Of a DNA stretch of 64,000 nt, positions 21,655 to 62,932 are shown piece after piece. The stretch's first letter is position 1. Each line of letters starts with the position of its first letter. The notes under the pieces were generated by a model. It was not told the DNA's origin. It ran no database searches and saw nothing but the letters and a program-made list of their open reading frames with translations. The position numbers and the translations under genes were made by a program. Source of the stretch: Eledone cirrhosa (taxonomy: Eukaryota). The stretch lies in assembly GCA_964016885.1 (NCBI GenBank), contig OZ024743.1, positions 260,214,001 to 260,278,000 of the forward strand. Direction: 5' to 3'.

Positions 21655-22100
21655 CCCGGTTCAATCGGGGGTAACCATAGTAAGTGAGGTACTCAATACA
21701 TAGTAGAGTATATAATGATTGATATAGAAATGGCTTCTACATGACTAGAACTGTTTCATTCGAAGGAAATCATCAGAAATAAGGTATGTTTATAAATAAA
21801 CATTTAGAAAGCCATAGCTATGCAAAAATATCGGCAGCTATCACCATCTGGCGGTGGTCGGCAGAAACAAGGGGAACAATCGTCGATGCATTTCGAACAC
21901 AACTGCTTCTCATGGGGACGACCCCTCCTCCCCGCACTTGCAACTGCTGGACTTTGAAATCAGGCGAGAATATATAGTTTCCTCGTCTGTGTAACTGAGG
22001 CGCTTCATCTCATTTGCATATGAAGCGGTATAAGGTGGCTCAACCTATAATAGAATATTATTTCTAAATGTTTATTCATAAACATACCGTATTTCTTTAG
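21655..22100 (-). mobile_element. Two fused hammerhead-element remnants
   Basis: 21655-21777 is an inverted homolog of 60700-60830 with CTGATGA..GAAA. 21775-22097 is a diverged homolog of the 36073 monomer, with short terminal inverted arms and a mutated HHR near 21879-21922. Confidence 0.7.
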
Positions 22101-22220
22101 AAATGCGAAATTCCGATACATATCTGTATACAGCTATGCGCGAAGCTAAATTATAATATATATATACCACACTGTTCGTACTGCACTCTTTGTTATTGTT
22201 TTTGTTTTTTTGTTTTTTTA

Positions 22221-32856: not shown

Positions 32857-33458
32857 GAAAATATATAAAATATATTGCTTGAAAGTTGATGGTTACAAAA
32901 AAAGGTAATCTGTACCAAATTTAAATATTGCTTTCTTCAGCGTAGTGTGTTTCTAAAAGAAAATTTAATATGGCAGTAGGTATATATGAAATAATTGTAT
33001 GATAGTGATATAATTGTTTTCTACTTTAGGCACAAGGCCAGGCAAATTATCCAGTACATTACTGTACATTACTGATAGTGATATAATGGAGGTAGGTATG
33101 AAAATAGAATTGAATAATTAACCAATGATAATAATAAATATAAATAATTATATATATAAATGAATTTTAAAGTTTTCAATTAAAATTAATGGGTTGAATT
33201 GAATTATATCACATAAAAAAGAGTTATAAATAAAGAGCCCAAAAAAGTAACACGCAAAAAAATATCCAAAACAAAATAACGAAAAAGAATGTTGGATAGT
33301 TTAGATCGACTTAAAGTATTTACTGAAGATATGTTTTGCAAAGAAACTCCATATATACATACAACACAACACATACATATATACACACACATATACATAC
33401 ATACACATGAATATGTGCTTGTATGCAATAGATGCTACTTATAATCACGTATACTATA

Positions 33459-33841
33459 ATTGTTTCTACTATTGGCACAAGGCCAGCAATTACCCAGTAC
33501 ATTACTAGTACTTTATTTTATCGACCCCGTAAGGATGAAAAGGCAAAGTTAGCCTCAGCGGGATTTGAACTCAGAATGGCAAGGGCCGTAACTCTATGCG
33601 TCAAAGCATGGCGTCCGACTCTCTACCGATACTGCCAATCCACCTATACTATAATTGTTTCTACTTTAGGCACAAGGCCAGCAATTATCCAGTGCATTAC
33701 TGGTACTTTATTTTTATCGACCCCGTAAGGATGAAAGGCAAAGTCAACCTCGGCGGGATTTGAACTCGATCGTAAAGGGACGTAACTATGCTGCCAAAGC
33801 ATGGCGTCCGACCCTCTACCGATTACTGCCAATCCACCGCC
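33459..33841 (-). mobile_element. SINE tandem dimer (plus tail fragment at 33013-33060)
   Basis: Two family copies separated by tatactata. Confidence 0.88.
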
Positions 33842-33988
33842 TACTATATAATGAAATAGTTTATTGGTATCTAAACGGCCTCGTCCGAAAATAATTAGAA
33901 ATAAGTGTCTTCTGATATAGATATATACATTACATATATAGATTATATAGATATATACATACATATATATATATTATTATATATATAT

Positions 33989-35081: not shown

Positions 35082-36072
35082 GTATGTATGTACGATAGAT
35101 GTATGTATGTATGTTTGATGATTGTGTGCATATATATGCACACAATATATATATAAGAAAATAAACAGACATTCTAATCTGAGTGTATGATATTTATTAT
35201 CTGTAATATCATAGATGAAATACTTACTTTTCTATTTATTGAGAAGAAAGTTTTGACATTGCTGCAATAAGGCAGTTAGAAGTAAAGAAAATGAAACGTT
35301 TATTCGTCGAATACTGAAGATTCGCTGAATGGTGGCCATATTTATCCGGATGACTTGGCCACAGCTGTATTAGGACATATAATTGAAGTACTTAAGAGGA
35401 AATCCAGTCCGAGTATACGAAAATGCTTACGTAATATATATTTAGAAATAAAAATAAAAAACAGTAATATTTAAAAGTTGGAACGAAGGTGATGTTTATG
35501 ATAGCAATACTGCTAGTGATAGCAATTTCGTAGTATTGATAATATGAATAACAATAATAATATTTAATAGTAATAAAAAAAAATTATATGAATTCTTTTA
35601 TCGCCCAAGGGAGGAAATTAAAGGTCATTACAATGACAAATCACAAAACATGTTTTAATTATGACTGAGATTGCAGATCGTACAAAGAAACAACAATTAT
35701 GTGAAATATATACATTATACGTATATGTATTACAAAATGCGGACAGCCACGCGTACACACCACACGTACACACCAACACACAGCAATACACAAACACACA
35801 CACACAGTCACACAATCAAGTAAGACTTTGTGGTATGTACTCTGCTTTCTCAGTGTGGACACAGCGGGATTTGAGCTGAAAACGCAGAGGGGCAGAACAA
35901 ACATCCATCGCTCACACCATATTGCCAAATCTAGCACTATATATATATATATAATAGAGAAGAAATTATATTTACTCCAGCTCTACCAGCTGTTGAGTGC
36001 TACTTATCTGATATATGCATAGTTTTATTGTTCTACAATATTACTCACCTTCTACATTATATATATATATAT

Positions 36073-36956
36073 AAGAAATAGGATTTCGCTTCAAGCATAG
36101 CTTTATACAATATGTATAAATATTTCGTATCTCCAAAGAAATACCGTTTTAGGAAGCCGTAGCTATGCAAACACAGGGGCGCTAATGCCCTCTGGTGATG
36201 TCCAGCAGAAGCAAGGGGGACAACCGTCTATGCATTTCAGGCTTAACTGGCCTTCGTCAGGACCGTCCCTCCCACCGCTTGCGACTGCTGGACTAGAAGA
36301 AAGGTAAGAATATATAGTTTTCTCGTCTCTGTAAATGAGGTGATTAATCTCATTTGCATATGAAGCTGCATAAGTTGGCTAAACTTATAATAAAAAAGAA
36401 ATAGGATTTCGCTTCAAGCATAGCTTGATACAATATGTATAAATATTTCGTATCTCCAAAGAAATACGGTTTTAGGAAGCCGTAGCTATGCAAACACCGG
36501 GGGGCAACGCCCTCTGGTGATGTCCAGCAGAAGGAAGAGGAACAACCGTCTATGGACATCACCAGAGGGCGTTAGCCCCCCGGTGTTTGCATAGCTACGG
36601 CTTCCTAAAACCGTATTTCTTTGGAGATACGAAATATTTATACATATTTTATAATGCTATGCTTGAAGCGAAATCCTATTTCTTTTTTATTATAAGTTGA
36701 GCCAACTTATGCAGCTTCATATGCGATTAATCACCTCATTTACACAGACGAGAAAACTATATATTCTCGCCTGTCTTCTAGTCCAGCAGTCGCAAGCGGT
36801 GGGAGGGACCGTCCTGACGAAGGCCAGTTAAGCCTGAAATGCATAGACGGTTGTCCCCCTTGCTTCTGTTAGACATCACCAGAGGGCGTCAGAGGGTGTT
36901 TGCATAGCTACGGCTTCCTAAAACCGTATTTCTTTGGGGATACGAAATATTTATAC

Positions 36957-36960
<4 letters not shown>
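36073..36960. mobile_element. Retrozyme-like element: 323-bp monomer, ~1.5-mer fused to an inverted ~1.25-mer
   Basis: aagaaataggatttcgc at 36073 and 36396; inversion at about 36553. Perfect HHR (+) at 36808-36851: accgtc-CTGACGA-aggc..gcct-GAAA-tgca-TA-gacggt. A copy lies on - at 36223-36266. Confidence 0.9.
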
Positions 36961-37035
<75 letters not shown>

Positions 37036-53335: not shown

Positions 53336-56300
53336 AGAAATATACAAGTAACGTTTTCGATTCAGAAACAAAAACATAAGTGTTTGAACTGTGAATATGT
53401 TGTGAATAAGTTGTAGAACACCTATTTATATGAATGATACATAAACTTTAACATATAAATACAGCGTTGTTATATTATATTACATTCATAAAGAAATATA
53501 CTAAGTAACGGTTCTTTTTGTTCTCGATTCAAACGATTCAAGAACAACGTTTAAAACACAGTTGTAGAATTAAAAACTAACTGAAAAGAAATATTACACA
53601 AGCTGTGAATAACTTTAAATTTGATTCTGACAGAACTTTGTCGAAACTTTTAAAGAAGATCATCGACTATTTTGAAAAATAAATACGAAATATTAGTGAA
53701 TAGACGAACTCATCATGGCAAAAAGTACAAGTCTCCTTCGACCAAATCGCAACTACAACCGTTGTATACATTGGAGCTACGAGCTTAACAAAGTATTATA
53801 TGAAGCATACAAACAATCTGAACCCCAAAAGTTCGGTTTTATGCAAAGGCTAAAAACTTTATGGAACTCCAAACACCCAGAATTAGACTTTTCTCCAAAG
53901 CATTTAAATGAACAGGCAAAACGTATCATTAGATGTAAATTGATACATCTAACGTAATTGAGTGATACTACAAATACAGCCCTTGTAGACAACCACCCCA
54001 CCTCCACTGACAGACAAAGAGAATGGCCAGCTAAATCTAACAGTGAACAGCTCACCAACAATTTTGCTGAAATCCATCCCACTTCCACTGAAGAACAGCG
54101 AGAAAGGTCAGCTAACTCTAGTAGTAATTGTCACCACATCAACAACGAGGCTGAAATTCATGACGCTACTGAACAAACAGAGCACCAAAAACTTGTGGAC
54201 ACCCTACAAGTGATATGGAACGATATGTTTCAAGAGATACACTGCCTTAATGTGAGTGACAGACCATACAACACCAGAATCAGTAAAGAACCCACTAAAT
54301 TGGAATTGGAAGCGGTGAACGAAATAGCTGGCAATTATCTGAAGGCTATACGATCTAAAGGTGTAGAAACGACATTTGAAACGCTTAATGTTTTGTTATA
54401 TGTTTCAGCTGTCACATTGCTATCATATAACACACATCTAAAATCACGCAATCAAGATACAAACAGAAAGCCTGAACCAGCGTGGATGCGAAATTTAAAA
54501 AGCAAAATTTTGTCCCTGAGACGAAGTATCTCACACATCGCAGTCGTTATGAAATGCAACATAGAGAGCAACTTCACACGACACCAGGAAGACCTAAAAA
54601 AAAGTTAGAGAGACGATTTGGAGATACAAAATTTAAAACTTTGAACTCCAAATTACAGTTGAAACAACAACTCACAACTACAACAGAAAGACTAAAATAT
54701 AAGTCAACAGCACATAAACGACAAGTGCTAAATAGATTGTTTGCCAGAGATCCTAAATCAGTTTATCGCAGCTTCGGTGGCAAAAGCTCAATCCCTGTAA
54801 ACGACACCCCTTCAAAAGAACAGGTTGAGAGCTACTGGAGATCTGTATGGGAAACGGATGACGGATTCAACAGACAAACCAATTGGCTAAAAGAACTGGA
54901 ACAGGACTACTGCCAACATGTCCAAACAAAACAATATGACATAGATGGGTCAATACTGGAAACAGCTCTACAGAAAATGTCGAATAGGAAATCGCCAGGC
55001 CCAGACCTCATTACAGGATACTGGTTGAAGAATTTCACTTTCTATCGGCAAGATCTCATACGGCTGTTTACAGAAACCATTAAAGGCACACAAGAACTGC
55101 CCAGATGGTTATCAACTGCCACTACTCTCCTCATTCCCCAAAATAGCCAAACCACCCTTGCTAAAAATTACCGCCCAATAGCCTGCCAAAACATCATGTA
55201 TAAATTATATACTGGGTGCCTTAACCTGTTCTTACAGGATCACTGTGCTACCAACAACATCATAACACCTGAGCAAGCTGGTGGAAAGAGGGAGGTGTGG
55301 GGTTGCATAGATCACCTACTAACTAACAAAATGATTCAGGAAAAAACAACAAAGAATCGCAGAAACATGACTGTGGTGTGGCTGGACTATCAAAAAGCAT
55401 TTGATAGTGTACCTCATGGGTGGATTATTAAGGCTTTACAGTTAGCTAAAGTCCCACAACCATTGGTAGCTGCTGTTGAACGCCTGACCAAGAACTGGTA
55501 CACCAATTTGATCCTTAGAGGTGAGAAGGAGCAAGTTAAGACTGATAAGATACATTACCAGAAGGGCATCTTTCAGGGTGATAGCTTGTCAGTGCTACTC
55601 TTCATTCTCTCACTGAATCCACTATCTTACCTACTCAGGAAACAAGGTGGACAAAGATGTGGGCCCAGAAGTATCTCCCATCTTTCCTTTGTTGATGACC
55701 TGAAGTTGTATGGCCAAATATCAATGACATCAAGAAACAATTGGACCTCATTACACAATTTTCAACCGACATCAAAATGAAATTTGGTGAGTCCAAGTGT
55801 GCATATTTGGCTGTAAAACGTGGAAGAGCTGTGCCCTCCTCTAAAAATCTAGAGATGAACGGCCTGACAATACAACCTCTACAGTCAGGTGACAACTACA
55901 GATATCTTGGACAGGATGAGAATGTCAGATATGATGGACCCATAAATGAGGAGAGAACCAGAACTGAATACCTCAGAAGAGTGAAGAAAATATGGTCATC
56001 AGAACTGTCAGCGTACAACAAATACATAGCCCACAATACTTATGCTGTGCCAATTCTAACGCCAACATTTGGCCTGCTGAACTGGTCATTGCAAGAACTA
56101 AGTGAGATGGATGTTAGAACTCGAAAACTTCTCAGTGTTACTGGAAACTTTAACATGAATGGTGATGTGGATAGGCTATACTTCTCACGCAAGAAAGGTG
56201 GCCGGGGTCTAAAATCAATATTAACAAAATATGAGACCCGGATAGTAACACTGAAGCAACACCTTCAACAGAGGAAACAGGTTGGCAACCATCTTGCCCA

Positions 56301-57300
56301 GGTTTATGAGCATGAAAAAAAAAATCATTAGAATAGCGACTGATCTGGAGGAGAGATATGGAATAAAGCCTGATATAAATCTCTCACCCAGAGAAGTCGG
56401 AAGATCCTATTCAATGTATAAACAAGATAAAAAAAATTGACCAATTTACAGAAAAAGTTGTGCATGGATACTTGAGGCGTAAAACACAGACCATAGAGGG
56501 GATAAACCACTCAAAAAGCCTGGCATGGAGTTCCGACAAGTTTATGACATCACACCTTGAGGAATATCTCTATGCAATACAGGAACAAGAACTCCCTACC
56601 AAATATCTGCTGCACAAAAGAGGAGGGCCAGCAGCTGACAATAAATGTAGGCTATGTAAAACAAAGATCGAGGATGTAAGCCACATTGTTGCCAGCTGCG
56701 AAAGAATGTCATCTCGCTACTACCTCTCCATGAGACACGATGGGATAGCTAGAACCATCTGGACCGCACTTCGGAAAACAAAATTAAAAACAAACGACGA
56801 AGAATATATTGAGACAGATGGCACTAAGGAATACTGGTGGAACCTGAAAATAAAAACTGCCACCAAATTAAAACACAACCGGCCTGATATTATTGTTAGG
56901 GACCACACATTGAAAACGTGTTCTGTTGTGGAGATCAGCTGCCCACTTGAAGTAAACGTTGTCAGAAAAATACAGGAGAAGGAGGACATCTACGGACCAT
57001 TGATGAGGAGTTTACAAATCCAGTATCCAAGATACACCTTTAGCTTCTTACCCATCATTATTGGAGCTACGGGTTATATACCAACCCGCTTGGACCAAAG
57101 TATGACTGAACTTGGATTTGCGGACAAAAAGCGCAGCTCCCTAATTCATAGTCTACAAATGGCTGTGATAGCTGGCACCTTCAAAATTTGCAAAACATTC
57201 TTGCGATTCAAGGGATGACAATTTCTTTTCTTTTACAACCTTGCCACCAGGAAGGTGGCCGGTCAAAAAAATATACTCGAAATTAAGAGAAAGAGATAAC
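53336..57300 (+). mobile_element. Near full-length R4/Dong-clade non-LTR retrotransposon inserted in (TACA)n
   Basis: Single disrupted ORF; (TACA)n on both sides; short 3' UTR with gccaccaggaaggtggc hairpin. Confidence 0.9.
53715..57218 (+). pseudogene. RT + CCHC zinc finger + REL endonuclease polyprotein, broken by stops and frameshifts
   Basis: N-terminal W..N..LY..Y..S.P..GF..RL..LW..HP domain. RT motifs KSPGPD, NYRPIAC, DYQKAFDSVPH, GIFQGDSLS, FVDDLKLY. Then CRLC..H..C, RHD, RPDII, EISCP. Confidence 0.92.
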
Positions 57301-57317
57301 ATTCATACATACATACA

Positions 57318-57675
57318 TGATGATGATGGCTGCCCCCTCGTTATCTAGTATGGCCATTGCACGATATACCATTATTAATAATTATTAATTAATTCTATCG
57401 TGCAATGCCTGTGCGTGAAGATATTTGTTAAAGTGAGGAAAGACTGTGAACTGAGCCAATCCCACTCTCTGAGCGGCAGTAGCTATAATCCGAAAAGAAG
57501 AAAAGATCAACATGATCGGTAACTACTAAGCCGCAGGTTTTATATCGGAGTTATCCCAGTTTCCTGAGTTGCCTTCTCCTAGAAGAATGCCCTGACAAAG
57601 GCTGGGGCTCCTTCATTCCCAGTGGTTTAACCGCGCGATCGGGTGTCCAGCCCGACTATATCCATGTCTCCGCGC
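57318..57675 (-). mobile_element. RTE-like non-autonomous element with (CAT)n tail
   Basis: Reverse complement of the 20159-20364 and 37223-37471 sequences. Confidence 0.78.
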
Positions 57676-57727
57676 ATATACATACATACATACATACATA
57701 CATACATACATACATACATACATACAT

Positions 57728-57999
57728 ACTCGATAACGAGGGGGCAGCCATCATCATCATGTATGTATGCATGTATGTATGTATGTATGTATGTATGTTT
57801 GCATGTATGTATGCTTGTATGTATGTATGCAGGCATGCATAAATGCATTCATGTAAATAAGACCATTGATTGCCTTAACCAGTAAAAAAACACTTAGAAA
57901 ACACCACAAATCCACCACTGACCTGCAGTCATAAATCTCACTAAACCAACCACCTACTCGCATCCCTATATTCCATAAACCAACCACAGACTGCACTAG
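57728..57999 (-). repeat. Inverted duplicate of the LINE upstream flank joined to its downstream flank
   Basis: Reverse complement of 53043-53270 + (TACA)n + 57318-57350. Confidence 0.88.
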
Positions 58000-59390
58000 C
58001 TACGGCTTATATACCAACCCGCTTGGACCAAAGTATGACTGAACTTGGATTTGCGGACAAAGAGCACAGCTCCCTTATTCATAGTCTACAAATGGCTGCG
58101 ATAGTTGGCACCTTCAAAATTTGCAAAAGATTCTTGCGATTCAAGATATGACAATTTCTTTTCTTTGACAACCTTGCCACCAGGAAGGTGGCCAGTCAAA
58201 AAATTATACTCGAAATTAAGAGACAGAGATAACATACATACATAACATCAATGATGATGTGGATAGGCTATACTTCTCACGCAAGGAAGGTGGCCGGGGT
58301 CTAAAATCCATATTAACATCATATGAGACCCGGATAGTAACACTGAAGCAACATCTTCAACAGAGGAAAAAGGTTGGCAACCATCTTGCCCAGGTTTATG
58401 AGCATGAAGAAAAAAATATCATTAGGAAAGCCACTGATCTGGAGGAGAGATATGGAATAAAGCCTGATATAAATCTCTCACCCAGAGAAATCGGAAGATC
58501 CTATTCAATGTTCAAACAAGATGAAAAAATTAACCAATTTACAGAAAAAGTTGTGCATGGATACTTGAGACGTAAAACACAGACCATAGAGGGGATAAAC
58601 CACTCAAAAAGCCTGGCATGGAGTTCCGACAAGTTTATGACATCACACCTTGAGGGATATCTCTATGAAATACAGGAACAAGAACTCCCTACCAAATATC
58701 TGCTGCACAAAAGAGGAGGGCCATCAGCTGACAATAAATGTAGGCTATGTAAAACAAAGATAGAAGATGTAAGCCACATTGTTGCCAGCTGCGAAAGAAT
58801 GTCATCTCGCTACTACCTCTCCATGAGACACGATGAGATAGCTAGAACCATCTGGAACGCACTTCGGAAAACAAAATTAAAAACAAACGACGAAGAATAT
58901 ATTGAGACAGATGGAACTAAGGAATACTGGTTGAACCTGAAAATAAAAACTGCCACCAAATTAAAGCACACCCGGCCTGATATTGTTGTTTGGGACCACA
59001 CATTGAAAACGTGTTCTGTTGTGGAGATCAGCTGCCCACTTGTGTAAACGTTGTCAGAAAAATACAAGAGAAGGATGACATCTACGGACCATTGATGAGG
59101 AATTTACAAATCCAGTATCCAAGGTACACCTTTAGCTTCTTACCCATCATTATTAGAGCTACGGTTTATATACGAACCCGCTTGGACCAATGTATAACGG
59201 AAGTTGGATTTGCGGGCAAAGAGCGCAGCTCCCTAATTCATAGTCTACAAATGGCTGCGATAGCTGGCACCTTCAAAATTTGCAAAACATTCTTGCGATT
59301 CAAGGGATGACAATTTCTTTTCTTTTACAACCTTGCCACCAGGAAGGTGGCCGGTCAAAAAATATACTCGAAATTAAGAGAAAGAGTGAA
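58000..59390 (+). mobile_element. Two further 5'-truncated copies of the R4/Dong element 3' end
   Basis: 58000-58232 corresponds to 57066-57300, and 58250-59390 to 56157-57300. Each ends in (CATA)n. Confidence 0.9.
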
Positions 59391-62329: not shown

Positions 62330-62932
62330 ATAATTGTTTCTACTTTTGGCACAAGGTCAGCAATAACTCAGTGCATTACTGGTACTTTATTTTATCGACC
62401 CAGTAAGGATGAATGGCAAAGTTAACCTCGGCGGGATTTGAACTCAGAATGGCAAGGGCCGTAACTCTATGCGTCAAAGCATGGCGTCCGACTCTCTACC
62501 GATACTGCCAATCCACCGAAAAAATAATAATTGTTTCTTATAGTAATAATTGTTTCTACTTTTGGCACAAGGCCAGCAAATATCCAGTGCATTACTGGTA
62601 CTTTATTTTATCGACCCCGTAAGGATGAAAGGCAAAGTTATCCGCGGCGGGATTTGAACACAGAATGGCAAGGGCCGTAACTCTATGCGTCAAAGCATGG
62701 CGTCCGACCCTCTACCGATACTGCCAATCCACCGAAAAAATAATAATTGTTTCTACTTTTGGCACAAGGCCAGCAATTGCCCAGTGCATTACTGGTACTT
62801 TATTTTATCGACCCCGTAAGGATGAAAGGCAAAGTCAACCTCGGCGGGATTTGAACTCAGATCGTAAAGGGACGTAACTCTATGCTTCAAAGCATGGCGT
62901 CCGATCCTCTACCGATACTGCCAATCCACCGC
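62330..62932 (-). mobile_element. SINE tandem trimer
   Basis: Three head-to-tail family copies joined by ccaccgaaaaaataataattgtttc. Confidence 0.9.

Follow-up and report, generated by a model that had tools for sequence, protein, structure and literature searches.

Penelope-like elements are the closest mobile relatives of telomerase. Those that carry an endonuclease (Neptune/Nematis, Penelope/Poseidon) occur as partial tandems with 5' truncation and an adjacent inverted, truncated copy, and they show a 30-40-nt tail at one end, a hammerhead in the repeat and a preference for (TA)n (PMC8557442, PMC3846280). How such elements make their tandem and inverted insertions is, according to Craig et al. 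(2021, PMC8557442), still to be explained, and self-priming is the standing proposal for the inversions of Penelope (PMC3846280). In vitro, a Penelope-like protein nicks and extends both strands of its target, prefers AT-rich DNA and initiates reverse transcription at two internal positions, one at each boundary of the tail; the protein is a predicted dimer, and its template is uncut, with hammerhead cleavage being dispensable (Frangieh et al. 2024, PMC11167929).

Animal non-LTR retrozymes are the other described system that is close to our locus. They are non-coding, highly self-paired units of 170-400 nt with a type I hammerhead (PMC7229834; bioRxiv 10.64898/2026.07.22.740005), they co-occur with Penelope-like elements, and they have been proposed to be non-autonomous derivatives of them (Cervera and de la Pena 2020, PMC7229834; Li et al., bioRxiv 10.64898/2026.07.22.740005). 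The word "inverted" is absent from the text of PMC7229834 and is found only in the title of a reference in the bioRxiv paper.

Here we analysed an element at positions 36,073-36,960 of a 64,000-nt stretch of DNA from Eledone cirrhosa. The whole stretch, called the window below, abounds in microsatellites such as (TA)n and (CA)n. The assembly contains 3.0 Gb in 1,796 contigs. The element is almost certainly a non-autonomous member of the Penelope type. It consists of two arms placed head to head, and the predicted hammerhead cut was defined as base 1 of the repeat unit. The outer ends fall at site A (~unit base 116) or at site B (~base 157), which lie ~41 nt apart, each 14-17 nt downstream of a CGAAAT motif. 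The features are as follows.

36058-36072, no strand: left (TA)n flank, which doubles as the 3' flank of a neighbouring element from another family.
36073-36554, minus strand: left arm, ~1.5 units, with its outer (3') end at site B and its inner (5') end 2-4 nt upstream of the predicted cut.
36073-36113, minus strand: 41-nt tail from site A to site B, forming the end of the left arm only.
36200-36293, minus strand: predicted type I hammerhead fold of the left arm, with the core at 36260-36254, GAAA at 36238-36235 and the predicted cut at 36229/36228.
36229-36550, minus strand: one whole unit from cut site to cut site, 322 nt.
36551-36554, no strand: head-to-head junction, with TA from upstream of the predicted cut and then a 2-nt TG microhomology.
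36553 to ~36957, plus strand: right arm, inverted, ~1.27 units, starting at unit base 25 and with its outer (3') end at site A.
36781-36874, plus strand: predicted type I hammerhead of the right arm, with the core at 36814-36820 and the predicted cut at 36845/36846.
36958-37034, no strand: right (TA)n flank.

A first-pass annotation of this DNA had described a 323-nt hammerhead monomer present as a 1.5-unit arm followed by an inverted copy, and this anatomy is indeed present. Positions 36067-36182 are repeated at 36390-36505 with a spacing of 323, and the second arm is inverted. The predicted cut sites of the left arm (36228 and 36550) are 322 apart because one base is missing from its unit, and a natural unit at another locus measures 323 nt. 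Read on its sense strand, the left arm comprises 2-4 nt, the whole 322-nt unit (36550-36229), bases 1-156 of the next unit and then (TA)n; the right arm runs from unit base 25 to the end of that unit, continues through the next unit to ~base 116, and is likewise followed by (TA)n. The 5' ends of the arms face inward and the 3' ends outward. The outer ends are unequal by the 41-nt tail (left = B, right = A), and both abut (TA)n, which would mask any target-site duplication. At the junction, the TG at 36553-36554 is compatible with both arms, and the TA at 36551-36552 equals the sequence 5' of the scissile bond. No stop-to-stop frame of at least 120 aa overlaps 36073-36960. The same annotation had taken the element to be reverse-transcribed, with more than one unit copied, and here too we agree. 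In three sequencing runs of one sample, whose kind is unrecorded, the family appeared at high copy, and no starts, ends or empty allele were seen.

Inverted duplications are a known long-read artefact, and an assembly or read fold-back could in principle produce such an arrangement. Over 297 positions the two arms differ by 10 substitutions and a deletion of 6 nt, and therefore the structure is not a read artefact; moreover, the same anatomy and the same rule for the outer ends recur in 124 pairs and in other families. We consider the probability of an artefact to be negligible.

As the first-pass annotation had it, the monomer carries a predicted hammerhead; it is of type I, and each arm has one whole copy. 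Its stem I is long and its stem II has 4 bp; the core is CUGACGA, and the fold also contains GAAA, UA and a UGCA loop that is palindromic. The left-arm fold (36200-36293, minus) has a z of -2.24, with 4 in 200 shuffled sequences doing as well, and this copy has one disrupted pair in stem I; a second cut in the left arm is predicted at 36551^36550. The whole unit (36229-36550, minus) folds with a z of -3.76, and none of 100 shuffles was as good. The window gave no Rfam match at the gathering score, and at E values up to 10 there were only chance matches of the hairpin type and no hammerhead. The stem II pairs are intact in 195-220 of 228 cores, a sample enriched by the exact-core search. An older 342-nt relative has exchanged three stem II pairs (AGGC/GCCT to GAAC/GTTC), indicating that the hammerhead fold is conserved. 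The dimer-type architecture of this hammerhead has been described for metazoan type I and Penelope hammerheads, and the Penelope-type hammerheads cleave poorly in vitro (PMC4209133).

The family is of high copy. We found 865 exact matches for a 25-mer of the unit and 367 for the 38-nt hammerhead core, and the first 100 matches of the 25-mer represent 81 loci, so the family has at least several hundred genomic copies. We mapped 178 loci, comprising 81 in order of position (from the first 100 pattern matches, contig C1), 58 from the core pattern and 39 best BLAST matches, after 17 of 195 fetched loci had been removed as overlaps of one place. Contig C1 supplied most of these loci, and sequence conservation was the basis of selection for two of the three samples. 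The allele and stop-rate counts omit L032, L054, L106, L243, L256 and L270, which are degenerate, duplicated or arrayed. Among the first 127 loci classed there are two subfamilies, of 95 and 29 loci, with 3 intermediate. The median divergence from the column majority is 3.6%. Head-to-head pairs number 124 in the 178 loci (53 in the 81 position-ordered loci), and the other 54 of the 178 have no head-to-head partner.

Across these loci we found a type I hammerhead motif whose helix III is short and palindromic, partial tandems, variable 5' truncation, fixed internal 3' ends downstream of the hammerhead, an adjacent inverted 5'-truncated copy, a tail on one end only and an AT-rich or (TA)n target, as in Penelope-like elements. 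We also found a non-coding unit within 170-400 nt and a type I hammerhead fold, as in retrozymes. The hammerhead arrangement of retrozymes is seen only in a minority of the loci, for example in L274 and in the 10-unit array L271, and is absent from the studied locus, where each arm has one hammerhead.

The junction at the studied locus lies 2-4 nt from the predicted cut (TA upstream of the scissile bond, with TG ambiguous), exactly as the first-pass annotation had noticed. From this it was proposed that the reverse transcriptase reached the 5' end made by the ribozyme and switched onto its own cDNA, so that the inversion marks the cut. The position of the junction and the short spacer of 30 nt do look like a fold-back, and in a few more arms the end falls at unit bases 2-11. 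However, when the breakpoints were mapped across the family, as that annotation had suggested, they were scattered along the unit, which is the outcome it had named as refuting. Only 5 of 248 inversion ends fall at most 5 nt from the cut, where 8.4 would be expected by chance in the 178 loci; allowing for microhomology, the count is 7 of 248 against ~9.8. The inner ends show an even spread along the unit (chi-square p 0.35, 174 ends), and the longer arm ends at the cut in just 3 of 80 pairs. In the position-ordered sample, none of the 93 arms at risk stops at the first cut site, and at the second site 34 of the 42 arms that reach it run past. The stop rate there is 1.3 per 100 nt, compared with 1.0 and 1.9 on either side, and with two different natural reference units no enrichment was found at either site. 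Narrow stop peaks at unit bases 110-122 and 149-166 were not used as evidence because in such AT-rich sequence an alignment can extend spuriously into (TA)n.

The left arm of the studied locus itself retains 2 unambiguous bases from upstream of the cut, which a cut RNA would lack. Since the cut is crossed freely and the ends are scattered, the copied RNA was uncut or religated, and copying was not stopped at a cut end. The studied locus looks special because its spacer is short, the fourth smallest among 80 pairs, and its end happens to lie near the cut. We therefore judge a stop and template switch at the ribozyme-made end to be very improbable.

The outer ends, in turn, are regular. Among the 124 pairs, 80 have one end at A and the other at B, 2 have both at A, 3 have both at B, and in 39 one end or both lie outside the two sites, which probably reflects deletions or insertions after integration. 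The A+B combination thus accounts for 80 of 85 classable pairs (binomial p 1.8e-18), and for 35 of 37 in the position-ordered sample alone. The inner ends behave differently: those of paired arms are uncorrelated (rho 0.02), and either arm can reach further 5' (20 vs 15), both in the position-ordered sample. Overall, the spacer distribution fits independent arms (KS p 0.27). Opposite arms appear to have a common origin. Rare alleles (present in at most 5 of 172 loci) are common to opposite arms in 12.7% of cases (30 of 105 loci), compared with 0.6% between loci; this sharing is about twentyfold above the between-locus level, indicating that both arms came from one source. An apparent pile-up at bases 44-56 was left out of the allele counts because of a variable C-run there. 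The same sharing between arms is also expected from fold-back or from later gene conversion.

Paired arms also meet in a characteristic way. Junctions are flush or overlapping in 87 of 124 pairs, with extra bases in the other 37; in the 87, the microhomology ranges from 0 to 7 nt, and the mean overlap is 2.5 nt against 0.68 by chance. L096 and L097, 5 Mb apart, have an identical junction (bases 196/154, overlapping by 3 nt), but A and B are exchanged between their arms, and thus the same microhomology was probably used twice. At L272:2510-3984, an A/B inverted pair was duplicated in tandem after insertion.

The main rival to two separate primers is a self-primed, trimmed hairpin. Arkhipova et al. 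(2013, PMC3846280) put forward its general form to explain why Penelope copies are inverted head to head. Here, antisense RNA or free cDNA extending past site B would fold back and be copied into a long hairpin, the two ends of which would then be trimmed in a staggered manner, one at A and one at B, before joining to (TA)n. It accounts for the junction microhomology and for allele sharing in the same register. Nesting of the arms separates this version from the simple switch onto the element's own cDNA. In 30 of the 80 A/B pairs the A arm lies within the B arm, in 8 the B arm lies within an earlier unit of the A arm, and in 42 neither is nested, so that each arm holds sequence absent from the other. 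Simple fold-back fails on these 42, and the trimmed hairpin is compatible with them because its outer ends would be cut afterwards.

The shortest spacers favour the hairpin as well. Spacers below 30 nt occur in 3 of 80 pairs against 10.0 expected (p 0.006), and independent arms do not predict this scarcity unless perfect palindromes were lost later. Perfect palindromes can be lost from genomes or assemblies, which would likewise leave few short spacers. Otherwise the spacers are those of independent arms, which argues against the hairpin, as do the in vitro data, where the tail boundaries are start sites of reverse transcription on a sense template with the nicked target as primer (PMC11167929). 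The flanks point in the same direction, since their type tracks the RNA letters at each site. (TA)n adjoins 88 of 128 A ends and 120 of 137 B ends (208 of 265 in total), (CA)n is found mostly at A ends (15 of 128, vs 2 at B), and (TC)n at B ends only (4 of 137, vs 0 at A). This mirroring of the local RNA letters is as expected if the target end anneals there; the (CA)n after A and the (TC)n after B may reflect such annealing or a telomerase-like repeat addition. Taken with this evidence, we regard the hairpin as a rather improbable explanation.

The first-pass annotation had predicted a circular RNA of ~323 nt. We also considered whether the template was such a circle, formed by hammerhead cleavage and ligation, with both cDNAs primed on it and tending to stall after one lap. 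This variant is compatible with the two-primer explanation. On a circle the arms would pass the cut site freely, as they do, and rare alleles are shared across registers at 6-8%, compared with 0.6% between loci. The stop rate rises 3.6-fold, from 0.34 to 1.24 per 100 nt, at a change point at base 165 (interval 161-204) of the preceding unit; B arms over bases 62-125 stop at 0.15 per 100 nt on the first pass and at 1.84 on the second. One 10-unit array carries one private allele in all 8 units scored, and mussel retrozymes of 350-390 nt yield abundant circles (PMC7229834).

On the other hand, sharing across units is limited to few loci (6 of 95 and 6 of 73), whereas sharing in the same register is broad (30 of 105); Fisher's test for the same-register excess gives p 0.029 at one threshold and 0.10-0.23 at three others. 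The stop rate also continues to climb with length, with 3 of 209 arms exceeding 570 nt, and therefore a length limit explains the data as well as a stall after one lap. The poor cleavage of Penelope-type hammerheads in vitro (PMC4209133) also speaks against a circle. Private alleles do not discriminate between a circular and a linear template, and on balance we find a circular template unlikely. The single-strand array of ~10 units at L271:6131-9435 (G000:C2, near 83.92 Mb) ends at site A; its units are 7-16% apart, and a ~1.56-kb block is duplicated. It may be a candidate source locus or a long rolling product.

For the search of a mobilising partner, we looked at other Penelope-like elements in the assembly. 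Searching for GIY-YIG domains returned 10,596 candidates, of which 150 were listed and 60 loci were examined. These 60 loci include at least six families with long frames of reverse transcriptase and GIY-YIG with a cysteine linker, which, judged by the description in PMC8557442, appear to be of the Neptune/Nematis kind. They have hammerhead variants of their own, 100-170 nt upstream of a (TA)n-flanked end, and full-length elements in inverted pairs (L171, L180, L284) have one short and one tailed end. Among the Penelope-like families, L166, L167, L168 and L169 have open frames of 636-1,096 aa, and their copies are 94-98% similar; in several families the hammerhead core reads UUGA instead of CUGA. 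The unit matches none of the 60 GIY-YIG loci, barring separate nearby unit insertions, and translated searches of the family loci returned unrelated neighbouring fragments only. With no partner in terminal sequence among these 60 loci, the mobilising enzyme is therefore one that we infer.

At 35949-36060 of the window lies a tiny head-to-head insertion of another hammerhead family (1,393 first-look candidates), with a ~90-nt tail and a UGCGCA loop, and the studied element is inserted in the (TA)n flank of this copy. At 21803-22166 lies the older relative, ~77% alike, with its 342-nt unit, an extra hairpin, inverted anatomy and 2,501 first-look candidates. Both of these also have one short and one tailed end. 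Two more short families, at L147:2441-2871 and L151:510-557, share a central hairpin motif with the older relative; of the two, L147 has one short arm and one tailed arm, and the two families may use the same enzyme. Elsewhere in the window, 53958-59047 holds one or more broken LINE-type elements (RVT_1 and two zf-RVT matches), and 33451-33848 and 62544-62931 are tandem pairs of one family's 195-197-nt repeat, which we take to resemble a SINE.

The A/B pairing, the allele sharing and the microhomology, together with the in vitro data of Frangieh et al., make the two-primer reading the simplest. The element is thus probably a protein-free one of the Penelope type, with head-to-head arms in (TA)n that stem from two cDNAs primed at A and B on uncut RNA. 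For the two-primer mechanism as such, our confidence is moderate. We infer the enzyme, its dimeric state and the order of the steps, which would be as follows. A borrowed, dimeric Penelope-like reverse transcriptase-endonuclease would bind the structured region at unit bases 60-157 and nick both strands of AT-rich DNA. One cDNA would begin at A and the other at B, on one RNA or on two RNAs from one source locus. Both would extend 5'-ward over the hammerhead and come to variable stops after ~100-550 nt, and their 3' ends would be joined to each other via 0-7 nt of complementarity, followed by fill-in. The template would be a multi-unit RNA, on present evidence more often a linear tandem transcript than a circle, and the hammerhead would be under selection, with its cut being no marker of the insertion ends. 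Against this model, the start sites found in vitro are alike on both strands (Frangieh et al. 2024, PMC11167929), whereas the model needs one per strand. The 54 loci that lack a head-to-head partner and the 37 junctions with extra bases also count against it. A stronger version, in which twin priming at two sites is obligate and a dimer on one RNA assigns A to one target strand and B to the other, would explain the inverted copy and the one-sided tail across the whole class; in the family studied here, the RNA may be a 323-nt circle on which the enzymes stall after one lap. We hold this version tentatively, at somewhat below even confidence.

Twin priming is familiar from L1, where each of the two target ends primes a cDNA on the same RNA, and joining by microhomology gives an inversion. 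In L1, the second primer sits at a variable internal site and the pieces barely overlap. In the studied family, both starts are fixed, 41 nt apart, and the same stretch is copied. An L1-type twin-priming inversion was rejected as the source of this insertion, in which the arms mostly overlap, both 3' ends point outward and poly(A) is lacking.

Compared with the described systems, the element is of the animal retrozyme type and has the known Penelope anatomy of an inverted copy plus a tail. Unlike the endonuclease-containing Penelope-like elements, it has no ORF and consists entirely of a 323-nt repeat, and its unit has no sequence match to the full-length families sampled in this genome. Unlike retrozymes with their long tandem arrays, the family is mostly dispersed in head-to-head pairs of 0.3-1.7 units. 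For this family, cleavage and circles are predicted. Set against the main texts of the cited papers, whose supplements may list a similar cephalopod family, the family is new and its kind is known.

With green anole Poseidon in vitro, the family shares two internal starts of reverse transcription that bound the tail, an AT-rich target and a hammerhead whose cleavage is dispensable (PMC11167929). The consulted text of that paper does not link the two start sites to head-to-head insertions, and it uses "inverted" only for a blocking base. The pairing of one A with one B was counted here, whereas PMC8557442 and PMC3846280, in the portions consulted, only give the tail as often being at one end; the searched literature, with subscription journals mostly outside it, contained no paper that states this pairing rule.

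A young, abundant and short family supplies counts that are unobtainable from long elements. The ribozyme cut leaves the insertion ends unmarked, and animal retrozyme-like units are tied directly to the integration signature of Penelope. That 80 of 85 pairs have one of each start turns the two-start finding in vitro into a testable prediction for a single product, and this one-of-each rule for the start sites is the part worth pursuing.
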